DNA of 10,361 bases from Candidatus Micrarchaeia archaeon. GTDB taxonomy: Archaea; Micrarchaeota; Micrarchaeia; Burarchaeales; JACRGF01. A model generated the notes under the pieces. It worked only from the letters and a program-made list of their open reading frames with translations. It had not been told where the DNA came from and did not search any database. Positions 1 to 10,361 of the stretch are shown piece by piece (the first letter of the stretch is position 1; every line of letters starts with the position of its first letter). A program made the position numbers and the translations under genes. The DNA lies in assembly GCA_038870455.1 (NCBI GenBank), contig JAWCPB010000033.1, positions 1 to 10,361 of the forward strand, given 5' to 3'.

Positions 1-143
1 TTATGGCGAGGAGTGAGAAGATGCGCCTCGTGCCGCTCGCGCTCGCACTCGCCCCGCTCCTCATCGGCCTCTTCTCCTTCCCATTCGTGGGAGTGCTCGT
101 GGCGGCTGTGGAAACGCTGTTCTTTGCGCTGGCGAGAAAATAG
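1..143 (+). CDS. 3' end of a membrane protein (probably truncated at the window edge; alternatively a 46-aa membrane protein starting at ATG 3)
   Basis: Frame from position 3 reads MARSEKMRLVPLALALAPLLIGLFSFPFVGVLVAAVETLFFALARK then TAG at 141-143. It is strongly hydrophobic with a basic C-terminus and ends just before the RBS of the next gene. It is not in the supplied ORF track. Confidence 0.7.
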   Translation, partial: MARSEKMRLVPLALALAPLLIGLFSFPFVGVLVAAVETLFFALARK

Positions 144-160
144 TGAGAGGTTGCGATCGC

Positions 161-1582
161 ATGAAGGCAGGGTTGTGTCTCCTGCTGCTGGCGGGCGCGG
201 TTTTTGCAGCGCAGAACGTCATGCTGGAAGCGCCGGTGAAGGAAGTCGTGCTGTACTCGAACGGGTTTGCGTACGCCACAAGAGAGGGAAGCGCGAGCCT
301 CGGCGCGGGAGAGTTCGCCCTGCAGATCGAGAACCTCACGCAGAACGCCATAGACGCGAGCATTTCTGTCCTCGACAACACCGGGACGCTGATTGAGATA
401 GCGCGCTACAGCGATTCCTTCACAAAGACGCTGAACCGTAGCCGCCTTCTGTTTTTCGAGGAGATTCTTAACGAGAGCATGGGAAAAAACGTTGTCGTGG
501 TGCTTGAGGGAAGCCAGAAGAGCGGCAAGCTTGTCTGGTTCGACTCCGAGAGGATAGGCGTGGCGTCGCAGGCGGGCGTGGATATTGTTGCGGTGAAGGA
601 TGTGAAGGAAATACGCGCGCCGGTGAGCGAGCTGAACAGGACAGAGGAGTACAACGAGACGGAGTGGAGGAGGGGGGTGAGAGTAGTGGTCAGAGCGGGC
701 GCGCCGGCCACACACGCGGTGAGCGTGGGGTATCTGGTATCCGGAGCGAGCTGGAGCGAGCACTACAAGCTGTATCTGGATAGCGATGTGGCGGAGGGAA
801 GCGCGCTCCTGCAGGCCTGGGCGGACATCAGCAACAACGTTGGCGAGGACTGGGAGAACGTGAGCGCGACGCTCATCATCGGCTTTCCGAGGATAATCAG
901 CGGGTGGCGGCCCTACTTCACAGATACCGGAGTGGTCAGGAGCGCGTTGAAGGCGGCGGCCGCGCCAGCTGCACTGGCTGAGGCGCTGCCGAGCGTAAGC
1001 GCGGGCTACTGGAGTTATACGCTGCCCTATCCCGTGAGCATGAAGAGTGGGGAGAGCAGCACGAGGCCGCTCTTCTCGAAGAGCGTGCCCTTCAAGCGCG
1101 AGTTCGTGTGGGAGACTGAAAACGAGCGCGTGCACAGGAACTACAAGCTCAACAACACCGGCAGGGAGAGCCTCGGAGAAGGTGTGGTGAGGGCGTATAT
1201 CGGGGGAAAGTTCATCGGAGAGGACAGCATCGAGTTCGTGCCGCCCGGCCTGGAGAAGGAAATTTATGTCGCGGACGTGCCCGAGATCGAGGTGAAGAAA
1301 ACGGTTTTGAACGAGAGCTCGCGCGAGGAGTTTAACGTGAGGGAGACGAAGAGAAGAATAGAGCTGAGCATGGAGAACAGGCGAGAGGAAAGCGCAGAGC
1401 TCGTGGTGCGCGACTCCATGGGATACGCTGACGAGGTCGTGCTCGTGAGCGCGAGCGTCCAGCCGGCCCAGAAGCCCGGCAACGTGCTCGAGTGGAAGGT
1501 TCCGCTGAAGAAAGGCGAGAAAAAAACGATAGTCTTCGAGTACATCCTGCGGTGGCACCAGACCCCGAGACCAATTTATTAA
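161..1582 (+). CDS. Secreted DUF4139/DUF4140-family protein with N-terminal signal peptide
   Basis: ATG at 161 follows an SD-like GAGGT. The signal peptide reads MKAGLCLLLLAGAVFA. Family-like segments recognised by eye: PVKEVVLYSNGFAYATREG, GYLVSGASW..HYKL, QAWADISNNVGEDWENVSATL and the C-terminal LEWKVPLKKGEKKTIVFEY. Confidence 0.8.
   Translation: MKAGLCLLLLAGAVFAAQNVMLEAPVKEVVLYSNGFAYATREGSASLGAGEFALQIENLTQNAIDASISVLDNTGTLIEIARYSDSFTKTLNRSRLLFFEEILNESMGKNVVVVLEGSQKSGKLVWFDSERIGVASQAGVDIVAVKDVKEIRAPVSELNRTEEYNETEWRRGVRVVVRAGAPATHAVSVGYLVSGASWSEHYKLYLDSDVAEGSALLQAWADISNNVGEDWENVSATLIIGFPRIISGWRPYFTDTGVVRSALKAAAAPAALAEALPSVSAGYWSYTLPYPVSMKSGESSTRPLFSKSVPFKREFVWETENERVHRNYKLNNTGRESLGEGVVRAYIGGKFIGEDSIEFVPPGLEKEIYVADVPEIEVKKTVLNESSREEFNVRETKRRIELSMENRREESAELVVRDSMGYADEVVLVSASVQPAQKPGNVLEWKVPLKKGEKKTIVFEYILRWHQTPRPIY
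1575..1582 (+). promoter_or_regulatory. Putative archaeal TATA box for glmS (overlaps the upstream stop codon)
   Basis: TTTATTAA sits 30-23 nt upstream of the glmS GTG, in an AT-rich patch within GC-rich DNA. Confidence 0.55.
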
Positions 1583-1604
1583 CATTCCCTCCCAAAAACA
1601 CATC

Positions 1605-3368
1605 GTGTGCGGCATAGTGGGCTACATAGGTGGGGAGAGGGCTGCGCCCCTGATTCTCAAGAGCCTTAAGAACCTTGACTACAGGGGGTACGACAGCGCG
1701 GGAATCGCCACGCTCGACGGCAAGGGAATACACGCCAGGAAAGACAAGGGAAAAATCGAGGAAATCGAGAGGAAGATGGATTTCACCGCCCTCCCCGGAA
1801 GCATCGGCATCGGGCACACGAGGTGGGCAACCCACGGCATACCGAGCAGGAGGAACGCCCATCCGCACTTCGACTGCAGGGGAAGCGTGTGCCTCGTGCA
1901 CAACGGCGTCATAGAGAACTACGCCGAGCTCAGGGAGTCCCTCAAGCAAAAGGGGCACAGGTTCTCCAGCGACACCGACAGCGAGGTTGTGGCTCACCTT
2001 GTTGAGGAAAAGCTGAAGGCGGCGAGGAACGCGGGCGAGGCGGTGAAGCAGGCCGTGGCGGAGCTAAAAGGGGCTTGGGCGCTCGCGGTGCTGGTCAAGG
2101 GCGAGGAGAGGATATTCCTGGCGAGAAGCCAGAGCCCGCTCGTGATAGGCGTGGGAAATGGCGAAATGTGGTGCGCCTCGGATGTTCCGGCCCTGCTCGC
2201 GCACACGAAAAAGTTCGTTTTCCTAGAGGACGGCGAGTTCGCGGTGTTGAGCCGCTGTGGTTATGAGGCGGAAAGGGAGGGGAGGAGGACCGCGCGCAAG
2301 CCCGTCGAAGTCGCCTGGACGACTGAGATGGCGCAGAGGGGGGGCTATCCGCACTTCATGCTCAAGGAAATAGAGGAACAGCCTCAGAGCGTGGCGCAGA
2401 CGCTGGCGCTCGACGTTGGCGAAGCCGCGGAGTTCGCCAGAAAATTCAAGCGCATTCACGTGGTCGCGGCAGGCACGAGCTATCACGCGGGGCTCGTGTT
2501 CAAGTACCTGGCGGCCCGGCTCGGGCTGCAGCCCGCCGATGCATTCATTGCCAGCGAGTACGCGCAGGCGTTCGCCGGCGGCGCGGGCGGCGAGACGCTC
2601 GTCCTCGCGATTAGCCAGTCGGGCGAGACCGCGGACACGCTCGCAGCGGTCAGGGAAGCCAAGAAAAGGGGAGCCAGGACGCTCGCCATAACGAACGTGG
2701 TCGGCAGCTCGCTCGCGCGGGAAGCGGACGTGGTGCTGTGCATGCAGGCTGGCCCGGAGATTTCTGTCGTCGCGACAAAGACTTTCCTCGCCCAGCTCGC
2801 CGTGCTGTGCGCGCTGGCCGCGCGCATGGCAGGTGATGAAAAGCTCCGGAAAGAGCTGGAGCGCGTGCCTGAGCTGGTGCGGGATGTGCTGAAAAAACGC
2901 GGGGAAATCGAGAGAGTAGCGGAAAGGATTTCGCGCAAGAGGGACTTTTTCTTCATAGGCAGGGGGCTCGGCTACCCGATCGCGCTCGAGGGCGCGCTCA
3001 AGCTCAAGGAAATAACCTACACGCACGCCGAGGCGTATCCCGGCGGCGAGCTCAAGCACGGGCCGCTGAGCCTGCTCGAGAAAGGCGTGCCGGTCATTGC
3101 CATAGCCCCTTCTGACGCCACGCTGCCCAAAATGCTGGGCAACATACAGGAGTGCAGGGCCAGGGAGGCGCAGCTCATAGTGTTGTCCGACAGCAGCCAA
3201 GCGCTTGCCGCGGCCGACGAACGCATCCGCATGCCGAAGGCGAGCCCGCTGCTGGCGCCCTTCCTTTACATCGTGCCGCTCCAGCTGCTCGCCTACCACG
3301 CGGCGGTGTTGCGCGGGGCGGATCCGGACAAGCCCAGGAACCTGGCCAAGAGCGTAACCGTTGAATAA
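1605..3368 (+). CDS. glmS: Glutamine--fructose-6-phosphate aminotransferase (isomerizing)
   Basis: N-terminal MCGIVG (Ntn nucleophile Cys), YRGYDSAG, GHTRWATHG, HNGVIEN, DTDSEV, the SIS-domain motifs SQSGETADT and GELKHGP, and the C-terminal PRNLAKSVTVE. Start codon is GTG. Confidence 0.98.
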   Translation: MCGIVGYIGGERAAPLILKSLKNLDYRGYDSAGIATLDGKGIHARKDKGKIEEIERKMDFTALPGSIGIGHTRWATHGIPSRRNAHPHFDCRGSVCLVHNGVIENYAELRESLKQKGHRFSSDTDSEVVAHLVEEKLKAARNAGEAVKQAVAELKGAWALAVLVKGEERIFLARSQSPLVIGVGNGEMWCASDVPALLAHTKKFVFLEDGEFAVLSRCGYEAEREGRRTARKPVEVAWTTEMAQRGGYPHFMLKEIEEQPQSVAQTLALDVGEAAEFARKFKRIHVVAAGTSYHAGLVFKYLAARLGLQPADAFIASEYAQAFAGGAGGETLVLAISQSGETADTLAAVREAKKRGARTLAITNVVGSSLAREADVVLCMQAGPEISVVATKTFLAQLAVLCALAARMAGDEKLRKELERVPELVRDVLKKRGEIERVAERISRKRDFFFIGRGLGYPIALEGALKLKEITYTHAEAYPGGELKHGPLSLLEKGVPVIAIAPSDATLPKMLGNIQECRAREAQLIVLSDSSQALAAADERIRMPKASPLLAPFLYIVPLQLLAYHAAVLRGADPDKPRNLAKSVTVE

Positions 3369-3404
3369 ATAAATGGGCGCTGTGAAAAGCGGTTGGTGGT
3401 TGCC

Positions 3405-3728
3405 ATGGCGGAAAGCGTGCGCGTGCACAAGACGATTGCGTGCTCGTGCGGAAGGGATTACTCGCTTGAACTCGCGACGGAGCTTGGTCTGAACTCGGTA
3501 ATGCTGGAGCTCGAGTGCCCGGGTTGTTCGGCGCGATTTACGGTGACGCTCGAGGCCCTGCTGCGGAACAAGCCCGCCGCCAAGGCTGAGGCGAGCGGCC
3601 TCGGCGAGAACCCGCTCGCGTTCATGGAAACGCCCGAGAGCACGCGGGCTGGCGAGGCGCAGGCGTCTTCAACGAGCGCGAGCGGAGAGCGCTCGCCCCT
3701 CGAGGAGCTTTTCGAGGAGGAGCTTTAA
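3405..3728 (+). CDS. Small hypothetical protein with a putative Zn ribbon (CSC...CPGC) and an acidic C-terminal tail
   Basis: ATG at 3405 follows an SD-like GGTGGT. The ORF fills the gap between glmS and mscS, and its stop directly abuts the next ATG (TAAATG). Confidence 0.75.
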   Translation: MAESVRVHKTIACSCGRDYSLELATELGLNSVMLELECPGCSARFTVTLEALLRNKPAAKAEASGLGENPLAFMETPESTRAGEAQASSTSASGERSPLEELFEEEL

Positions 3729-4559
3729 ATGCAGGGACAGACAGGAAGCCTCGCGCTCGTTCTCGCGCTGCTGCTTCTGCTCGCCGCGCTGCTGTTTCTC
3801 GCGGGCACCTACGCGAGGGTTGAGATAAGGCAGACGCTGCTCGACGCGAGCGCGTTCATCGCACCCGCGACCTGGAGCGTGCTCATCCTCCTCGCGGCCA
3901 TAGCCGCGCGCGCCCTGATGAACGCGTTCTTCGACTACTCCATGCGCAAGTATCCCTTGGACGTGCTGAAGTCGCTCAAGGCGCTCACCTCCGCAATATT
4001 GTTCGCGGCAGCGCTGCTCATCATCATCGCAATATTCACGAGGGACGAGGCGATATTCACCGTGATCATCGCCGGCTTCGTGCTGACAATCGTCATAACT
4101 GGCAGGGAGTTCCTCGAGGACTTTGCGCGCAGGTTCGCTCTCCTCTCCTCGGCGGCCATCAACATCGGCGACTATGTCGAGGTCGATGGCGTCAAGGGAA
4201 GGGTCGTGGAGTTCGGTGTGGTCTACACCACGATAAGGAAGGACGACAACACGCTCGTGAGCATTCCGAACAAGGAGCTGCTGGGCATGCGCGTCATAAA
4301 CTACTCGAAGGCGCCCCACCTCAAGGTGCAGGACAGCATAGAACTGCGTGTCGGAAAGAGGGAGGCGGAGAAAATAGCCGGCGAGATACAGGCCGAGCTC
4401 GAGCTCAAGGGCTTCGGAAGGTGCCGCGTGACGCCCTTCAAGTCTGGCGATAGGGTGCGTTTCGTGGCGACAATCATGCTTGATGAAACCGCAGACATGC
4501 GGGAGGCGAGCGAGGCCCTCGCCAGGGCACTGAAAAAGGCGTTGAGCAGCCACGGTTGA
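3729..4559 (+). CDS. mscS: Small-conductance mechanosensitive channel family protein
   Basis: N-terminal transmembrane helices followed by the MscS beta-domain signature IGDYVEVDGVKGRVVEFGVVYTTIRKDDNTLVSIPN...VINYS. Confidence 0.9.
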   Translation: MQGQTGSLALVLALLLLLAALLFLAGTYARVEIRQTLLDASAFIAPATWSVLILLAAIAARALMNAFFDYSMRKYPLDVLKSLKALTSAILFAAALLIIIAIFTRDEAIFTVIIAGFVLTIVITGREFLEDFARRFALLSSAAINIGDYVEVDGVKGRVVEFGVVYTTIRKDDNTLVSIPNKELLGMRVINYSKAPHLKVQDSIELRVGKREAEKIAGEIQAELELKGFGRCRVTPFKSGDRVRFVATIMLDETADMREASEALARALKKALSSHG

Positions 4560-4563
4560 TGGC

Positions 4564-6345
4564 ATGCGCGCGCGCCTTGCGCCAAGCCCGCCGCTCAAGA
4601 AAGAGCTGGGGCTGTTCGGCTCGTTCTCGCTCGGCTTTGCGGACGTCGGCGCAGACATCTTCCTCGCGCTCGGCCTCATCGCGGCTTACGCGGGCGGCGC
4701 CATGCCGTTCGCCATACTCGTGGCCGCGTTCGTGTACGCCTGCACGGGCCTGGCGTACGCGGAGCTCGCGAGCGCGATTCCGGTGGCCGGGGGAGCGGCT
4801 TCTTACGGCAGGAGGGCTTTCGGAGACTTCGTGGGATTCCTCGGTGGGTGGGGGCTCGCGCTCGACTACCTCATCTGCATAGCGCTCTTCGCGGTCGCGT
4901 CGGCCGGCTACCTGAGCGTGCTGTTTCCCGGAGTGAGAGAGTTCTTTTCCTTCGCGACCGCGGGCATCATACTTTCTCTCGCGGGGATAAACCTGCTGGG
5001 AATCAGGGAGTCCTCGCTCGTGAACACGGCGCTCACCCTCACGACAATGGGGGTCGTCGCCATTCTCCTGCTCGCGGGCTTCGGCGCGGCCTTCAGCCTC
5101 CCGCTCTTTCTCTCAACCATCCAGCCGATTGGCAGCGCTGTGGGATGGCCGGACTTCCTGTTTTCCATAACGCTCGCCATGGTGACCTTCATCGGCATAG
5201 AGAGCATCTCGCAGGCCGCGGAGGAGACGAGGGAGCCCGGCAGGATAATACCGAGGGCGTCGGGCCTGGCGGTGCTGCTCGTGGTGCTGTTCGCCGTGCT
5301 GGTGAGCGTGCTGGCGCTCGGCATCGTCCCCCCGAGCGAGCTTGCCGCGAGGATGGACAACCCGCTGACCGCCGTGGCGCTCCGCCTCCCGCACGCGGGC
5401 ATACTCGTTCCCCTCGTTGCTTTCGCAGGCTTTCTCATCTGCCTCGTGAGCGCCAACACGGGCGTCATCGGCGTCTCGCGCGTGCTGTACTCGCTCAGCA
5501 AGGCGAACCTCATCTCCAAGAGGTTTAGGTGGGTGCATCCAAGGTACGGAACGCCGTGGATGACGATCATCCCTTTTTCGGCCATCGCGCTCGCCCTCGC
5601 CTTCGCCGGAGACATGCGCCTGCTGGGAGAGCTTTACGCGTTCGGCGCGCTGCTCGCCTACCTCATAGCGAACGTCTCGCTCGTCGCCCTGAGGATAAAG
5701 GAGCCGGCGCTTGCCAGGCCCTTCAGGCTCGGGTTCAACGTCCGCGTGGGGGGCGCCGACGTACCGCTGATAGGCGTGCTCGGGTCGCTGTCCTGCGGCG
5801 CGGTGTTCGCGCTCGTCATCCTGCTGCACGAGCAGGGAAGAATTTTCGCCGGCCTCTGGTTCCTCTTAGGAATAATCGCGCACTTCGCGTACGCGAGGTA
5901 CAAGGAGGTCGCGCCGGAGCTCGAGGCCTACCTGGAAGAGAGGGCGATGAAGGGAAGGAAGACCGTGCTTGTTCCGCTCAAGCTCGCTGGCGAGGAGGCG
6001 GCCGTGCTCGACTTCGTGGCGAAGCTCTGCTCGGACCTCGGGGCCAGCGCCACGCTGCTTCACATTGTCGAGGTGCCGCTCTCGGTGCCGCTCAAGGAAG
6101 CGGCCGCCAGGCTCGGCGAAGAGGAGAAGAAGGTGCTGGACAAGTGGAAGAACGCGCTGGCCAAAAGAGGGCTTGAGGTCGTGGTGGCGGTGCGCGCGGC
6201 GAGAAGCGCGAGCGAGGGAGTGGTCGACTTTGCCGAAGAAAACGAGGTGCCGTACATCTTCCTGAGCAAGGAGGAGGCTGTCTCGCGCGTGGTGCAGGAA
6301 ATAGAGGACAGCACTGGAGCGCAGCTCATCGTCTATACGCGTTAA
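4564..6345 (+). CDS. APC-superfamily (amino acid permease-like) transporter with C-terminal universal stress protein (USP)-like domain
   Basis: LKKELG N-terminus, YAELASAIPVAGG, FIGIESISQAAEE, SRVLYSLS, HPRYGTPW and RPFR motifs, with about 12 hydrophobic segments. The C-terminal KTVLVPL...ATLLHIVEVP...EGVVDFAEE region is USP-like. Confidence 0.9.
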   Translation: MRARLAPSPPLKKELGLFGSFSLGFADVGADIFLALGLIAAYAGGAMPFAILVAAFVYACTGLAYAELASAIPVAGGAASYGRRAFGDFVGFLGGWGLALDYLICIALFAVASAGYLSVLFPGVREFFSFATAGIILSLAGINLLGIRESSLVNTALTLTTMGVVAILLLAGFGAAFSLPLFLSTIQPIGSAVGWPDFLFSITLAMVTFIGIESISQAAEETREPGRIIPRASGLAVLLVVLFAVLVSVLALGIVPPSELAARMDNPLTAVALRLPHAGILVPLVAFAGFLICLVSANTGVIGVSRVLYSLSKANLISKRFRWVHPRYGTPWMTIIPFSAIALALAFAGDMRLLGELYAFGALLAYLIANVSLVALRIKEPALARPFRLGFNVRVGGADVPLIGVLGSLSCGAVFALVILLHEQGRIFAGLWFLLGIIAHFAYARYKEVAPELEAYLEERAMKGRKTVLVPLKLAGEEAAVLDFVAKLCSDLGASATLLHIVEVPLSVPLKEAAARLGEEEKKVLDKWKNALAKRGLEVVVAVRAARSASEGVVDFAEENEVPYIFLSKEEAVSRVVQEIEDSTGAQLIVYTR

Positions 6346-8981
6346 GCGAAGACGACGGGGTCCCGCGTCTTTCCCTGGGCAAGGCGGTCGCTGCCGCCCC
6401 CGCCTCCGCCGAAGGCCGCGCACACTTCGCCGAGCAGCTCTTTCGCGCTCCGCCCGCTCTGCCTTCCGGCAGCGCACACCACGTCATTGCTTTTGTTGGC
6501 GAACACCACGGCACAGCCCTCGTCGCCCTCGACCATCTTGAGCGCGATTTTCTTGAGCAGCCCGGCATCAACATCGAGCGCCTTGCGCACGAGCTTCCCC
6601 TCCTTCCTGAAGCGCGCTGCGGAGATTTCCGCCAGCGTGTCCTCGAGCTCGGCCACAGCCTTGCCCCTCTCCTTCCACTCGTTGAAAAAGCGTTCGACGG
6701 CAGCCGGCAGCGAGGCGGGCGGGACCTTGAGCCTGTCGGCAGCCTGCTCGAGCAGCGCTTCCCGCTCCTGGATGAAGGCGAGCGCGGCCTCTCCGGCGCA
6801 GTACTCGATGCGGTTCACGCCGTCCTGAATGCGCTCCTCCTTGATTATTTTTATGAGGCCGAGCTTTCCCGTGCTCGCCACGTGAATGCCGCCGCACGCT
6901 TCCTGGTCGGTGCCCTCGATGTCGACAACGCGCACGGTCTTGCCGGGAGCCCCTCCCCCTTGGTAGAGGGTGAAGCCGTACCGCCTCTCAGCCTCTCCCC
7001 TGTCCAGGCTCCGCACGACAACGGGCTTGTCGGCGAACACGATGGCGTTGGCCGCGCGCTCGATCTCCTTGAGCTGTTCCGGAGAGATCTTTTCGTAGTG
7101 CGTGATGTCCAAGTGCGCCTTGTCCGGCTCCTTGCGCGCGCCCGCCTGCCACACGTGGTTGCCGAGCACCGCGCGTGCCGCAGCCGCCATGACGTGCGTG
7201 GCGGTGTGATGGCGAGCCAGCGCCCTCCTCCTGTCCGCATCCACGGCGCACCTCACCCTCTGGTTGACCGTGAAGATGCGCGCATCCTCCACCTCGTGAA
7301 ACACGACGCCCCCGGCAATCTGGACGTCCAGCACGCGCTTGCCGTGAATCGTTCCCAAGTCAGGGGCCTGCCCCCCTCCCTCTGCGTAGAAGCACGTCTG
7401 GTCGAGCACGAGCGCGTTCCCGCGGATGGCGACCACGCTCGCCTCGCACGCTGTCGCGCCCGTCTCGTAATAGAGCAGGCGCGTCTTCGGAAGCCCCTCG
7501 GGGTTGTACTTCGCCTCTTCCCTCGCCTCGTGGAAAACGTGCTGCTGGGTGAGGTTCTTGTAGAAGTCGCTTGGAATCTCAACGGGCTTGCCGAGGCCAG
7601 CGGCCACCTCCTCGGCGAGCTCGGGCGTCACGCCGTGGCTCTCGTAAAGCTCGGAGAACTTTTCCTCCGTCAGCCTTCCTTTTTCTATCAGGTCGCTGAC
7701 CAGGCGCTTGGCCCTCTCAAAGGAAGCCCTGTACCGCCTTTCCTCGACTTCGAGAATGGCGTGAATTTCGGAAACGTTCTGCGACAGCTCTGGAAAAAGC
7801 GGGCGCAGGTACTTGGCGTGCGCCTCCGCCACCTCGCCGAGGGCGAACGGGAGCTTGTACTGGTCGATGAACGACAGCGCGCGCCGCAGCACCACGCGCA
7901 GGTTGTACCCGCCTCCGACGTTGCTGGGCAGCCCTCCGTCTGCGATGGCGAACGCGAGCGCCCGCGCATGGTCTGCGACCGCGTAAATGGCTTCCAGAAC
8001 AGCAATTTTCTTCTCGAGCTCGTCAAGCGACACGCCGAGCTCGCGGGCCACTCCCTCCTTCACTTTCCTGATGTCAGCGTGCTCCTCCAAATCGAGCCTG
8101 CTCGAGAGCGCGGCGTACTTGAGGAAAAGCTCCTTGTCGTAATCCACGCCGGCCTGCCTTATCAGCTCAGGAACGACGGGACCGAATGCGCAGTCGTACG
8201 CGGTGGGCGTGCCTGCGGCGTACCAGACGAGCCTCTCGAAGCCCCATCCCACGTCAATGACTTTCGCCGCGAGCTCGCGCGGAGAGCCTCCCGGAGGCTT
8301 GGTGAATTCGGTGAACACCGAATTGACCAGCTCGAGGCCGTTCGCGAAAGTTTCGACGCACGGGCCGAAGGAAGACAGGTCTGGCATGGCCCAAACGTCC
8401 TCCAAGTAAGTCAGTTCCTCCGGCTTGATTTCCAGCACGCGGGTCAAGTAGTTGAAGTTCAGCTCGATGCACCTGTCCTTCCAATAGCCTTCGGCTGGGT
8501 AGTTGAAGGAATGCTGGCCGGCCATGACAAAACACGAGAAATGCCTGCCCGTAACCCCGACGTTTGGAATGTCGTTGAAGCGCAGGCACATCTGTGGCAC
8601 GACGAGCGGGTTCTCAGGGTACTCCCACGCCACGGCCCCTCCCTCGAGGCGCATGAAGTCGACGATGCTCGCGATGGTGAAGTAAAGGTCGTCGCGCCAG
8701 CGGCAGATGACAGGATAGCGGGGAATGCTGGCGTGCCCGTTGTCGGTGAAAAACTTCTCAAACCCCCGCCACACTTCGATGTAGTCCGCGCTAGCCGGCC
8801 TGAAGAACGAGTACGGCTCGCACTTGGAGTCGCCGCACACTTCTTTGCCCAGGCTCCAGAAAAAGCGGCCGCACTTGGGGCACTGCCTCCTGGCAAAGCC
8901 CTTTTCCTTGAAGAGAGCAACCTCATAATGCCGCTGCGGCTCGCGGCTGAACTGCGCGCGCAGCTCCTCCTTGACGCCCAT
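6342..8981 (-). CDS. alaS: Alanine--tRNA ligase, archaeal type
   Basis: N-terminal CPKC...C...C region, RWRDDLYFTIASI, VGVTGRH, DVGWGFERL, ADHARAL, LDQTCFYAEGGGQ, editing-domain HTATH and EACGGIH motifs, and the C-terminal GGGGGGSDRLAQG. Confidence 0.98.
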   Translation of the reverse strand: MGVKEELRAQFSREPQRHYEVALFKEKGFARRQCPKCGRFFWSLGKEVCGDSKCEPYSFFRPASADYIEVWRGFEKFFTDNGHASIPRYPVICRWRDDLYFTIASIVDFMRLEGGAVAWEYPENPLVVPQMCLRFNDIPNVGVTGRHFSCFVMAGQHSFNYPAEGYWKDRCIELNFNYLTRVLEIKPEELTYLEDVWAMPDLSSFGPCVETFANGLELVNSVFTEFTKPPGGSPRELAAKVIDVGWGFERLVWYAAGTPTAYDCAFGPVVPELIRQAGVDYDKELFLKYAALSSRLDLEEHADIRKVKEGVARELGVSLDELEKKIAVLEAIYAVADHARALAFAIADGGLPSNVGGGYNLRVVLRRALSFIDQYKLPFALGEVAEAHAKYLRPLFPELSQNVSEIHAILEVEERRYRASFERAKRLVSDLIEKGRLTEEKFSELYESHGVTPELAEEVAAGLGKPVEIPSDFYKNLTQQHVFHEAREEAKYNPEGLPKTRLLYYETGATACEASVVAIRGNALVLDQTCFYAEGGGQAPDLGTIHGKRVLDVQIAGGVVFHEVEDARIFTVNQRVRCAVDADRRRALARHHTATHVMAAAARAVLGNHVWQAGARKEPDKAHLDITHYEKISPEQLKEIERAANAIVFADKPVVVRSLDRGEAERRYGFTLYQGGGAPGKTVRVVDIEGTDQEACGGIHVASTGKLGLIKIIKEERIQDGVNRIEYCAGEAALAFIQEREALLEQAADRLKVPPASLPAAVERFFNEWKERGKAVAELEDTLAEISAARFRKEGKLVRKALDVDAGLLKKIALKMVEGDEGCAVVFANKSNDVVCAAGRQSGRSAKELLGEVCAAFGGGGGGSDRLAQGKTRDPVVFA

Positions 8982-9004
8982 CGAGAAAGCTTATCGAAAA
9001 GAAG

Positions 9005-9011
9005 ATTTAAA
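9005..9011 (-). promoter_or_regulatory. Putative TATA box for alaS
   Basis: TTTAAAT on the minus strand lies 30-24 nt upstream of the alaS ATG (8981). This spacing is typical of a leaderless or short-leader archaeal transcript. Confidence 0.55.
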
Positions 9012-9048
9012 GCCCTTCGGAGGAAAAAAGTTCCCCCCTCCCGCTCGC

Positions 9049-9056
9049 TTTAAAAT
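9049..9056 (+). promoter_or_regulatory. Putative TATA box for tRNA-Val
   Basis: TTTAAAAT begins 30 nt upstream of the mature tRNA 5' end (9079) and is divergent from the alaS promoter. Confidence 0.55.
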
Positions 9057-9112
9057 TTATCTCGACAAAAACAATTCCGGGCCCGTAGTCGAATGGTAAG
9101 ACGTCAGTCTCA

Positions 9113-9212
9113 CAACCCTTTTCCGACGCTTCGGAAAAGCGTTGACGGAAAAAAGGAGAGCGCCTTCGGCGCCAACCCTTTTCCGACGCTTCGGAAAAGC
9201 GTTGACGGAAAA
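9113..9212 (+). repeat. Exact 40-nt direct repeat (9113-9152 = 9173-9212, 60-nt period), each copy palindromic
   Basis: CAACCCTTTTCCGACGCTTCGGAAAAGCGTTGACGGAAAA occurs twice, and each copy is followed shortly by GGAGAGC. The copies are separated by a GCGCC-TTC-GGCGC hairpin. Confidence 0.97.
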
Positions 9213-9221
9213 GGGGGAGAG
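9115..9221 (+). other. Archaeal BHB-type tRNA intron (relaxed BHB)
   Basis: Bulge CAA (9113-9115), central helix CTCA/GGAG (3 pairs plus an A·G mismatch), bulge AGC (9220-9222), and intron-side helix CCCTTTTCCG (9116-9125)/CGGAAAAGGG (9206-9215). Confidence 0.85.
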
Positions 9222-9267
9222 CACTGAAGATTCGGCGTTCGATTCGCCGCGGGCCCACTCCAGAAAC

Positions 9268-9275
9268 TATTAAAA
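9268..9275 (+). promoter_or_regulatory. Putative BRE/TATA for the orphan ORF
   Basis: A purine-rich CAGAAA is followed by TATTAAAA, 29-22 nt upstream of GTG 9297. Confidence 0.5.
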
Positions 9276-9296
9276 ACTCGACAACAAAAAACTCTC

Positions 9297-10052
9297 GTGG
9301 CAGAACCGAAGACAGTCGTAAAGACAGGTGGTTCCGAACGCGCTCAGGATCCGCAAGAAAGTTTTTCCAGATTAAAACTTAGCCCAGACATACCACCAGT
9401 CAGCGGCAGGTTTACTGCTGAGTTGGAATTAGGTATGCCCCTCTGGGGAATGTCGGTAGAGGGCGTCTTATCCCAAAGAGAAAAGCATCCTCAACTCGCA
9501 GCGAAAGTGGAAAAAGCAATCGAAAGAAAGAAGGCTTTTGATGCCCGTTTCGAAAAATTGATTGAAGCGACTGCACAAAAGGCGAAAAAGGCGCTTACGC
9601 CAGATACCATCGCGAAATTCAAAAAAGAGGTTCTCGCCTCCTCCGAAATCAAGCCAGAAGACCTTGCTGATGATGAGAAAGTGGCTGAAATGCTGGCCAG
9701 AACCATAGCCCGTATGCATATAAGAGAAAACCTCAAGAAGGAAGTGCCGTCGCCAAATGATATAAAGGGATGGCTGACTTGGACGAAAGAACATTTTGGA
9801 GACGACATTATGAGACTGGCCCTGCGAGTGCTGCTTCCGGAGGACCTGCCGAATTTGCCTAAAGGCAATCTTGATTTTGATGACCTCCTTCTCGCCGCTC
9901 CGCTGGCAGCGCACAATGCCCTTGGCTTTATTCGCGCCTACCCCCAGGATTCTTCGAAAAAAACGGATGAGGAAGAGTTGATTTATAGGTTCGCGAACCT
10001 GCACTTATGTGTGATTGCAAAAAATTTACTTAAACAACTTACAGAGAAGTGA
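9297..10052 (+). CDS. Hypothetical protein (251 aa, Lys/Glu-rich, predicted helical), lower GC than neighbours
   Basis: A long ORF fills the space between two tRNA genes, has a natural amino-acid composition and has its own TATA-like element. I recognise no family. Confidence 0.8.
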   Translation: MAEPKTVVKTGGSERAQDPQESFSRLKLSPDIPPVSGRFTAELELGMPLWGMSVEGVLSQREKHPQLAAKVEKAIERKKAFDARFEKLIEATAQKAKKALTPDTIAKFKKEVLASSEIKPEDLADDEKVAEMLARTIARMHIRENLKKEVPSPNDIKGWLTWTKEHFGDDIMRLALRVLLPEDLPNLPKGNLDFDDLLLAAPLAAHNALGFIRAYPQDSSKKTDEEELIYRFANLHLCVIAKNLLKQLTEK

Positions 10053-10094
10053 ATGCTGGAGAGAACAGGCGCGCTAACCACCATCCCTTTTTGA

Positions 10095-10102
10095 TTTAAT
10101 AT
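10095..10102 (+). promoter_or_regulatory. Putative TATA box for tRNA-Glu
   Basis: TTTAATAT lies 32-25 nt upstream of the mature tRNA 5' end (10127). Confidence 0.5.
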
Positions 10103-10126
10103 TTTGCTTTACTAAAAATAGCTCGG

Positions 10127-10244
10127 GCTCCGATCGTCTAGTCCGGTCAAGGATGCAGGCCTCTCGAGCAACCTTTTCGCGTTGCGCGAAAAAGCGTTGG
10201 CATGGGGGAAGCCTGAGACCCGGGTTCAAATCCCGGCCGGAGCA
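10127..10244 (+). tRNA. tRNA-Glu(CTC) with a 43-nt intron at position 37/38 (exons 10127-10166 and 10210-10244)
   Basis: Acceptor stem GCTCCGA/CCGGAGC (A7·C66 mismatch) plus A73. D arm GTCT-AGTCCGGTCAA-GGAT. Anticodon stem CAGGC/GCCTG with loop CT-CTC-G|A. Short variable loop AGAC. T arm CCGGG-TTCAAAT-CCCGG. Confidence 0.93.
10167..10209 (+). other. Archaeal BHB/BHL-type tRNA intron
   Basis: Bulge CGA (10165-10167), central helix CTCT/GGGG (two G-C and two G·U pairs), bulge GAA (10208-10210), and an internal hairpin TTTTCGCG-TTG-CGCGAAAA closed by CAAC/GTTG. Confidence 0.85.
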
Positions 10245-10247
10245 TAA

Positions 10248-10350
10248 GACAAAGGGGGGAGGTGTCCCCCCTTCGTCCTCGACCTTCCCCCCTCTCGGGG
10301 AGGGTCAGGAGGAACATCAAACTGGGGAGGGGCGCAGCCCCTCCGCGGTT
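10248..10350. repeat. Cluster of three adjacent GC-rich inverted repeats of unknown function
   Basis: AAGGGGGGA-GGTG-TCCCCCCTT (10252-10273); GACCTTCCCC-CCTCTC-GGGGAGGGTC (10281-10306, one G·T pair); GGAGGGGC-GCA-GCCCCTCC (10326-10344). Each stem can be extended further past a mismatch or bulge. Confidence 0.85.
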
Positions 10351-10361
10351 CGGAGGTATCG

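Follow-up and report, generated by a model that had tools for sequence, protein, structure and literature searches.

How introns arrive in archaeal tRNA genes remains open: the part of a 2026 preprint available to us (bioRxiv 10.64898/2026.10.13.758758) finds no general route and names the Thermoproteales as the single case of shared intron families. Those transposed tRNA intron families (Fujishima et al. 2010, Mol Biol Evol) are described here after the accessible portions of that preprint and of PMC3239211. The disruption of a Caldiarchaeum tRNA-Thr gene by an integrating mobile element is described in the available portion of Sugahara et al. (2012; PMC3293823). Here we analyze a stretch of 10,361 nucleotides (nt) from a Candidatus Micrarchaeia archaeon (assembly GCA_038870455.1, contig JAWCPB010000033.1, positions 1 to 10,361), called the window below, in which a tRNA-Val and a tRNA-Glu gene are interrupted by introns that contain copies of the same hairpin element. 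Both introns probably belong to an extensive archaeal family of structured insertion elements that would supply the intron-side helices of the bulge-helix-bulge (BHB) splicing substrate and would have spread between genes and between distant lineages.

Two further kinds of repeat invite comparison. The hairpins of REP/RAYT systems and those at the ends of IS200/IS605 elements are short and imperfect, occur in many copies, and are often found just after genes. A pyrimidine, a purine and a mirror-repeated purine domain on one strand are described in the accessible part of Holder et al. (2015; PMC4666352) as a class II purine-motif intrastrand triplex; such motifs are reported there for the bacterial BoxC, PIT and TM_ECO repeats, and purine-motif triplexes are said not to form in RNA. 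An earlier note on the window, made from the letters alone, had read the shared palindrome as a mobile, REP-like element that uses tRNA splicing as a safe harbor. Our analysis partly supports this interpretation.

Results

We scanned one genome per prokaryotic species with the pattern CAACC-N(0-1)-TTTTC-N(8-16)-AAAAGCGTTG, which gave at least 118 loci (referred to by L numbers), so that the counts derived from it are lower bounds. Among the 125 de-duplicated matches listed, 81 continue into the tail ACGGAAAAG or a near variant of it, which lay outside the search pattern, and all 81 are archaeal; four further archaeal matches are family members in which the tail varies or is missing. The 39 bacterial matches and the single Hodarchaeota match among those listed are without the tail and look like chance. 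The family has at least about 92 copies, a count slightly inflated by a few overlapping loci, in at least 65 archaeal assemblies with 24 taxon labels. Among the matches listed these labels include Methanophagales/ANME-1, Methanocellales, Methanosarcinales, Syntrophoarchaeum, Altiarchaeota, Thermoplasmatota and one Bathyarchaeia, together with Micrarchaeota, Parvarchaeota, Woesearchaeota, Nanoarchaeota, Aenigmatarchaeota, Diapherotrites/Iainarchaeum and Undinarchaeota. From 80 copies we built a covariance model, with which the flanks of the loci were searched. In 659 kb of archaeal flanks it scored the seeds at 38-74 bits and recovered 14-15 new, diverged copies beyond the reach of the pattern; in 430 kb of bacterial flanks it returned the seeds only, at 18-32 bits, and no further copy. 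Copies can be dense, with four within 4 kb in L064 and four in L053.

The consensus of the element is CAACCC-U4-C-stem/loop-G-A4-G-C-GUUG-AC-GG-A4-G followed by a purine tail, and a unit is 55-65 nt long. It consists of three matched segments: a 5' pyrimidine arm (Y; CC-Un-C-...), a purine arm that pairs with it (R1), and a second purine tract (R2; GG-An-G-...), with a conserved linker C-GUUG-AC between R1 and R2. The palindrome that the earlier note had taken as the unit makes up only a part of it, as the unit is longer by GTTG-ACGGAAAAG and the purine tail. In the hairpin, which the search pattern left free in part, 92% of cells are paired, and 75 cells carry double changes compared to 29 in shuffles, with none of 500 shuffles reaching as high a value; slid registers pair in 46-53%. 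Covariation of this kind is seen in the apical stem, which is variable but stays paired as had been proposed. The proposal of a stem base with a conserved imperfection also holds: the diverged copies show compensated basal stems (CGAC:GTCG, TAAC:GTTA, AAAC:GTTT twice, CAAG:CTTG, GAAC:GTTC and AGG:CCT), and all nine diverged copies that were read retain a C opposite a C. Furthermore, three runs vary in length together, namely the U's in the 5' arm, the A's in the 3' arm and the A's that follow ACGG, with lengths of 3/3/3 in L064, L053 and L035 and of 5/5/5 in L069, L045, L074 and L053:717. The same concerted difference separates two Methanocellales, whose orthologous tRNA-Leu(TAA) introns in the D-loop have runs of 4/4/4 and 5/5/5. 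The apical variant CCGCTTCGCGC is found in different genes of Aenigmatarchaeota, Parvarchaeota, Methanocellales and an unclassified archaeon. The motif CGCT is present in 21 of the 33 G/C-type copies versus 4 of the 47 A/T-type copies.

Read outward from the base, the bases that follow GGAAAAG repeat the 3' arm, that is, R2 mirrors R1. The summed common prefix of R2 and the 3' arm is 135, versus 80 in permutations (p<1e-4, 43 unique copies, which are related and of low complexity). For homopurine/homopyrimidine stems with an interruption, the mirror fits 40 of 44 positions and a direct repeat 24 of 44; in mixed G/C stems the mirror fits only 4 of 15. In a fixed-column test, the parallel complementarity of the 5' arm with the third tract is higher than in shuffles, but the same is true of neighboring registers, and the register is therefore not fixed by this test. 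Watson-Crick pairing between the 5' arm and the third tract was rejected, as it holds for the symmetric core only and its outward extension pairs in 7-24 of 80 sequences. An apical loop:tail pseudoknot, judged by eye, is compatible with two loci alone (L089 and L047). Box C/D, K-turn, known small ribozymes, CRISPR repeats and integron attC sites were likewise set aside, since the motifs they need are absent by eye, no arrays of open reading frames (ORFs) and elements occur, and Rfam is silent. In the window and 20 loci, Rfam 15 has no family for the element at the gathering threshold or at loose E values (up to 1-10); only tRNA and 5S rRNA reach the threshold there, and weak microRNA and small-RNA rows are chance.

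After removal of a copy and a variable tail in silico, ARAGORN found a tRNA restored across the junction for 46 of 97 copies. Isotype calls are noisy after such brute-force removal (the gene in L003 is called Val and reads Gly(TCC)), and they were therefore used only for the presence of a tRNA. By hand sorting, the 46 comprise 36 introns, most of them at 37/38 and some in the D-loop or T-loop, five copies just past a tRNA 3' end, and five instances in which a duplicated gene fragment had been removed. Single genes may carry more than one copy: in L053 the tRNA-Val gene has copies in the D-loop and at 37/38 and the tRNA-Glu gene at 37/38 and in the T-loop, and L064 is similar. All intron copies that we saw have the sense orientation. 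In an uncultured archaeon (L069), one 16S rRNA gene contains two element-type inserts (3273-3337 and 3501-3561), one of which splits the universal GTGCCAGC/AGCCGCGGTAA site in the 515 region; an insert in this primer site would defeat standard amplicon primers. In five ANME-1-type genomes the element immediately follows tRNA-Gly, in four genomes it immediately follows 5S rRNA (5S by Rfam in L117), and in some loci it starts 1-8 nt after a stop codon. Copies thus occupy several tRNA genes and more than one intron position as well as rRNA and intergenic DNA, which reveals a repeat family rather than isolated copies, as the earlier note had suspected.

In the ANME-1-type genomes L007, L097, L100 and L108 the element follows the archease gene and begins 5 nt beyond its stop codon, which probably reflects one inherited insertion. 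In L007 the archease gene occupies 8942-9355, and the element (9360-9422) fills the gap to a convergent DUF447 gene. Archease is a cofactor of the tRNA-splicing ligase.

For 10 of 91 copies, 11-40 nt located just upstream recur within 400 nt downstream. A control that compared the upstream 60 nt with the 400 nt further upstream gave 6 of 91, and we therefore consider the flank duplication a lead only. The usual layout in these loci is a 5' gene fragment, the element, a spacer, and the intact gene (L005, L011, L027, L038, L050, L060, L096 and L115). The intact gene lies 25-185 nt downstream of the element, the duplication begins near the first base of the gene, and the gene in L050 encodes a protein. 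L065/L066 and L115 contain tandem arrays of fragment and element.

In the window itself, the introns of tRNA-Val and tRNA-Glu are both at the canonical 37/38 site (Table 1). The Rfam tRNA model spans both inserts, and what remains after their removal is a standard tRNA, as is expected for BHB introns. In the unmodified window ARAGORN finds no tRNA gene, and the tRNA-Val gene is missed by the fast Rfam scan and recovered by the Rfam tRNA model only under laxer filters. With the insert removed in silico, ARAGORN calls tRNA-Glu(ctc) for the Glu gene and leaves the type of the Val gene undetermined; the Val exons were read by hand. The bound of the Glu intron may shift by one base, because an A repeats at the junction. 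Since neither gene was called by ARAGORN and tRNA-Val escaped the fast Rfam scan, annotated tRNA sets are expected to be incomplete in element-rich genomes.

Table 1. Positions of the interrupted tRNA genes, the element copies and a neighboring gene in the window.
Feature	Position	Strand	Basis and remarks
tRNA-Val(CAC) gene, interrupted at 37/38	9079-9257	+	Rfam tRNA model positions 1-71, 51.1 bits
tRNA-Val exons 1 and 2	9079-9114; 9222-9257	+	hand reading of the sequence
tRNA-Val anticodon CAC	9111-9113	+	read from the sequence
tRNA-Val intron, 107 nt	9115-9221	+	bounds from anticodon stem TCAGT (9104-9108) and ACTGA (9223-9227)
Element copy 1	9113-9160	+	hairpin core 9113-9144; linker and purine tract ACGGAAAAAAGGAGAG 9145-9160; exact 40-nt repeat; covariance model 49.9 bits
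Spacer hairpin GCGCC-TTCG-GCGC between both Val copies	9160-9172	+	read from the sequence; paired in the RNAfold fold
Element copy 2	9173-9221	+	hairpin core 9173-9204; linker AC 9205-9206; third segment GGAAAAGGG 9207-9215; covariance model 59.4 bits
tRNA-Glu(CUC) gene, interrupted at 37/38	10127-10244	+	Rfam tRNA 42.3 bits
tRNA-Glu anticodon CTC	10163-10165	+	read from the sequence
tRNA-Glu intron, 43 nt	10167-10209	+	hand reading; fold
Element copy 3, degenerate (Glu intron)	10169-10199	+	5' arm one C shorter; without ACGGAAAAG tail; covariance model 32.4 bits
Alanyl-tRNA synthetase gene	6342-8981	minus	

A palindromic element common to both introns, as first noticed in the earlier note, is confirmed by its coordinates (9113-9144, 9173-9204 and 10169-10199), by an exact repeat and by the covariance model, whose 80 training sequences included two of the three window copies. 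The two Val 32-mers (9113-9144 and 9173-9204) are identical, and the exact direct repeat extends over 40 nt (9113-9152 and 9173-9212) with a spacing of 60. The first Val CAAC begins within the exon, its initial two bases being exon bases 36 and 37. In copy 2 the third segment GGAAAAGGG is followed by GGAGAG, which reaches the 3' splice site. The Glu copy, which has lost the third segment, has CAACC, TTTTC and AAAAGCGTTG in common with the Val copies; fuller copies of the element occupy the Glu-intron site in the Micrarchaeota tRNA-Glu genes of L053 and L084. The 10-mer AAAAGCGTTG occurs exactly three times in the window (at 9135, 9195 and 10190), and with at most one mismatch it has 8 matches versus 0.78 expected, a number reached in none of 200 shuffles. 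With its filters off, the family covariance model finds nothing beyond the three copies above 17 bits in the window.

In the minimum-energy fold that RNAfold predicts for the tRNA-Val transcript, copy 1 contributes CCCUUUUCC (9116-9124) and copy 2 contributes GGAAAAGGG (9207-9215) to a common helix. This 5'-arm:tail helix adjoins a CUC:GAG helix between the anticodon loop and the end of the intron, and the anticodon stem is kept. For copy 2 alone, the predicted fold that uses the tail has -22.9 kcal/mol, compared to -15.7 kcal/mol for the palindrome of the earlier note. The GGGGG runs to which that note drew attention are present (9213-9217 and 10204-10208), but they are not a separate feature; in the RNAfold predictions they form part of the third segment and of the strand paired with the anticodon loop. 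With the GAG register shifted by two bases, the Val junction would form a near-canonical BHB by hand reading, having two 3-nt bulges (CAA, 9113-9115, and AGC, 9220-9222) that flank a central helix of three base pairs (C-G, U-A and C-G) and an A-G mismatch, with an outer helix of 9 bp. Other G/C-type introns are predicted to fold alike, into a 5'-arm:tail helix with an inner hairpin in which CGCU pairs with the conserved AGCG. In this alternative fold the unpaired C of the palindrome can pair, because CGCU pairs with AGCG; this does not explain why the mismatch is retained in A/T-type copies.

The closest public sequence is a contig from a Candidatus Micrarchaeia metagenome-assembled genome (MAG; JAWAFC010000014.1, locus L105), which has both interrupted tRNA genes and carries TCCG at the loop of the Val spacer hairpin, where the window has TTCG. 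The window is from a GC-rich archaeon; its coding DNA has a GC content of 0.57-0.67 and the final 1.4 kb of 0.48-0.50. Apart from the alanyl-tRNA synthetase gene, the window encodes a GlmS-type amidotransferase, a mechanosensitive channel and an amino-acid permease. An ORF of 251 aa (9297-10052, +) that lies between tRNA-Val and tRNA-Glu has no Pfam match and a GC content of 0.48-0.50 versus 0.57-0.67 elsewhere. In L105 the distance between these tRNA genes is about 670 nt shorter, and what is left of this ORF is its beginning, its end and a piece from its middle. Downstream of tRNA-Glu the window has a series of G/C hairpins (10250-10345; GGGGGGAGGTGTCCCCCC, CCCCCCTCTCGGGGAGGG and GGGGAGGGGCGCAGCCCCTCC), and a similar unit is present twice after tRNA-Glu in L105. 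In L105 the first 19 nt of tRNA-Val are also present a second time, about 110-130 nt upstream of the gene itself and with a G/C hairpin behind them; this piece sits inside a stretch of about 130 nt that is absent from the window. Long ORFs that run antisense to real genes (AlaRS, GlmS and a DUF4139 protein) at 6882-9053 (+), 2223-3428 (-) and 2-1615 (-) are without Pfam match and are the usual shadow frames of GC-rich DNA.

Discussion

The recurrence of one structured core in different genes of distant archaea suggests that the Val and Glu introns belong to a family of insertion elements that likely moved between genes and between distant lineages. When located in tRNA or rRNA genes, the element would supply the helices on the intron side of the BHB substrate. 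For tRNA-Val, this would mean that Y of copy 1 pairs with R2 of copy 2, adjoining the helix between the anticodon loop and the last bases of the intron, so that the whole insert could be excised by the splicing endonuclease. Elsewhere, the element sits at the 3' ends of genes.

Several observations weigh against this interpretation. The loci were selected for holding the search pattern, and the fixed bases of the pattern are therefore conserved by construction. Many copies within lineages are clearly orthologous (those in tRNA-Gln of three Methanocellales, those after tRNA-Gly in the five ANME-1-type genomes, and the Val and Glu introns of the window and L105), so that vertical descent explains part of the spread. 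The taxon labels of MAGs may be wrong; the 5S rRNA and element context of L042, which is labelled Bathyarchaeia, resembles that of ANME-1 genomes (L048, L059 and L117), and this contig may be mis-binned or mislabelled. BLASTN searches with the Val intron region gave no match in a phage collection and only three chance matches of 27-30 nt (E=0.3) in a plasmid collection. No mobilizing gene was found among the 150 ORFs scanned of the 321 that lie within 3.5 kb of elements. With regard to splicing, the putative Val BHB requires the A-G mismatch in its central helix and a register two bases off the RNAfold optimum, and the Glu BHB, again by hand reading, would be relaxed, with a central helix CUCU:GGGG that includes two G-U pairs and an outer helix offset by a 1x4 loop.

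One possible driver of the spread of such a family involves the mirrored third segment. The family alignment has the domain order of a class II triplex on one strand (pyrimidine, purine, reverse-Hoogsteen purine), the third domain mirrors the purine domain in homopurine stems, and by hand reading copy 2 of the window could form 7 triads. It is conceivable, although rather doubtful, that the element is a natural class II intrastrand triple helix, a hairpin plus a mirror purine strand, formed in genes with heavy transcription on the non-template DNA strand or, contrary to what is expected, in RNA, and that this structure drives its own copying and insertion into stable-RNA genes and gene ends. 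If this were the case, the elements would represent a mobile BHB mini-intron family across archaeal phyla and would show a concrete way in which archaea gain introns in tRNA and rRNA genes.

An alternative explanation is that the element does not move at all and is a selected module, serving, for example, as a two-way oligo-T terminator or 3'-end stabilizer and as a folding aid in splicing, that was spread by descent, duplication and conversion. The position directly at the ends of tRNA, 5S rRNA and protein genes, the filling of the entire gap between convergent genes in L007, the T runs on both strands in A/T-type copies, and the persistence of orthologous copies within lineages agree with such a module. 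However, this explanation is unlikely, as a terminator within tRNA or rRNA introns would be harmful, and as neither the G interruptions of the third tract, which track those in the stem, nor the identical apical variants in unrelated genes of distant lineages are explained by it.

The copies could also be an end, or an attachment-site arm, of an integrative element that targets tRNA genes with a tyrosine recombinase, the short copies being remnants after integration and deletion, in line with the model put forward for tRNA-Thr of Caldiarchaeum (PMC3293823). The recurrence of the upstream flank downstream of 10 of 91 copies points in this direction, as do a phage-integrase-family (tyrosine integrase) gene about 185 nt from the intron-bearing tRNA-Tyr gene in L031 and the extra 5' fragment of tRNA-Val upstream in L105. 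Nevertheless, the control reaches 6 of 91, most copies are without flank duplication, this integrase is the only recombinase in the 150 ORFs scanned of 321, and the copies in 16S rRNA and at the T-loop are precise small inserts, which together make remnants of an integrative element a quite unlikely source.

The REP-like nature that the earlier note had proposed is borne out with respect to placement (copies begin 1-8 nt downstream of stop codons or immediately follow tRNA and 5S rRNA genes) but not, in the 150 ORFs scanned of the 321 near elements, with respect to an HUH partner. A REP or IS200/IS605-like element, whose hairpin and unpaired C would be the site recognized by a Y1/HUH transposase on single-stranded DNA and for which introns would be the sites where insertions survive, would account for an imperfect, multi-copy palindromic hairpin with an invariant mismatch and covarying stems, for the positions just after stop codons, and for the many copies per genome. 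We regard it as improbable, however: these 150 ORFs contain no Y1_Tnp, OrfB or other transposase, the 659 kb of archaeal flanks contain no inverted pair of copies that flanks a gene, every intron copy is in sense orientation, and the exon-specific 3' tails of the intron copies do not suit simple cut-and-paste. Chance similarity or a one-off local gene conversion between both introns, favored by a distance of only 870 nt between the two tRNA genes and foreseen in the earlier note should no further copies turn up, can be dismissed, because the element is present in at least 65 other assemblies, recurs across tRNA genes, intron positions, rRNA and intergenic DNA, and is carried by orthologous Val and Glu introns in L105, L053 and L084.

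A family of structured insertion elements, the interpretation we prefer, bears on the open question of the origin of archaeal tRNA introns. Distant archaea share an intron core defined by its sequence, which they carry in several tRNA genes and positions, in 16S rRNA and also beyond introns. Having such a core makes the arrival of introns testable through model searches, the dating of gains and losses, the search for a partner protein, and the dissection of segment roles. Keyword searches of the literature, which did not extend to the supplements of the cited papers that possibly list related introns, found no description of the element family, and in literature text the motif strings match only chance primers. 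The accessible part of the ARMAN endonuclease paper (PMC3239211) does not mention the element.

Among known systems, the element is like the REP/RAYT and IS200/IS605 hairpins in its imperfection, copy number and placement after genes. It is unlike them in that no HUH gene was seen in the 150 scanned of 321 nearby ORFs, and in that its sense bias, third segment and residence in introns are without counterpart. To judge from the part of PMC4666352 available to us, the BoxC, PIT and TM_ECO repeats share with the element their domain order, conservation, multiple copies, mostly intergenic location, and link to local rearrangement. BoxC is, however, G/C-rich, bacterial and, in that part of the source, not reported in introns, whereas the element is archaeal, resides in introns, and also conserves its linker and basal stem; we claim no sequence similarity between the two. 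As in the Caldiarchaeum case, following the accessible part of PMC3293823, a 5' fragment of a tRNA gene lies upstream of an intron-bearing tRNA gene with inserted DNA between them, but the Caldiarchaeum insert measures 1.8 kb and encodes a recombinase, whereas the inserts with the element measure 60-200 nt and encode nothing. The intron families of the Thermoproteales, compared by their description in the available portions of PMC3239211 and the preprint, resemble the element in BHB-dependent splicing, which is predicted here. They are limited to one order, whereas the element is found in DPANN lineages, Methanocellales, ANME-1, Altiarchaeota and more, and also outside introns.

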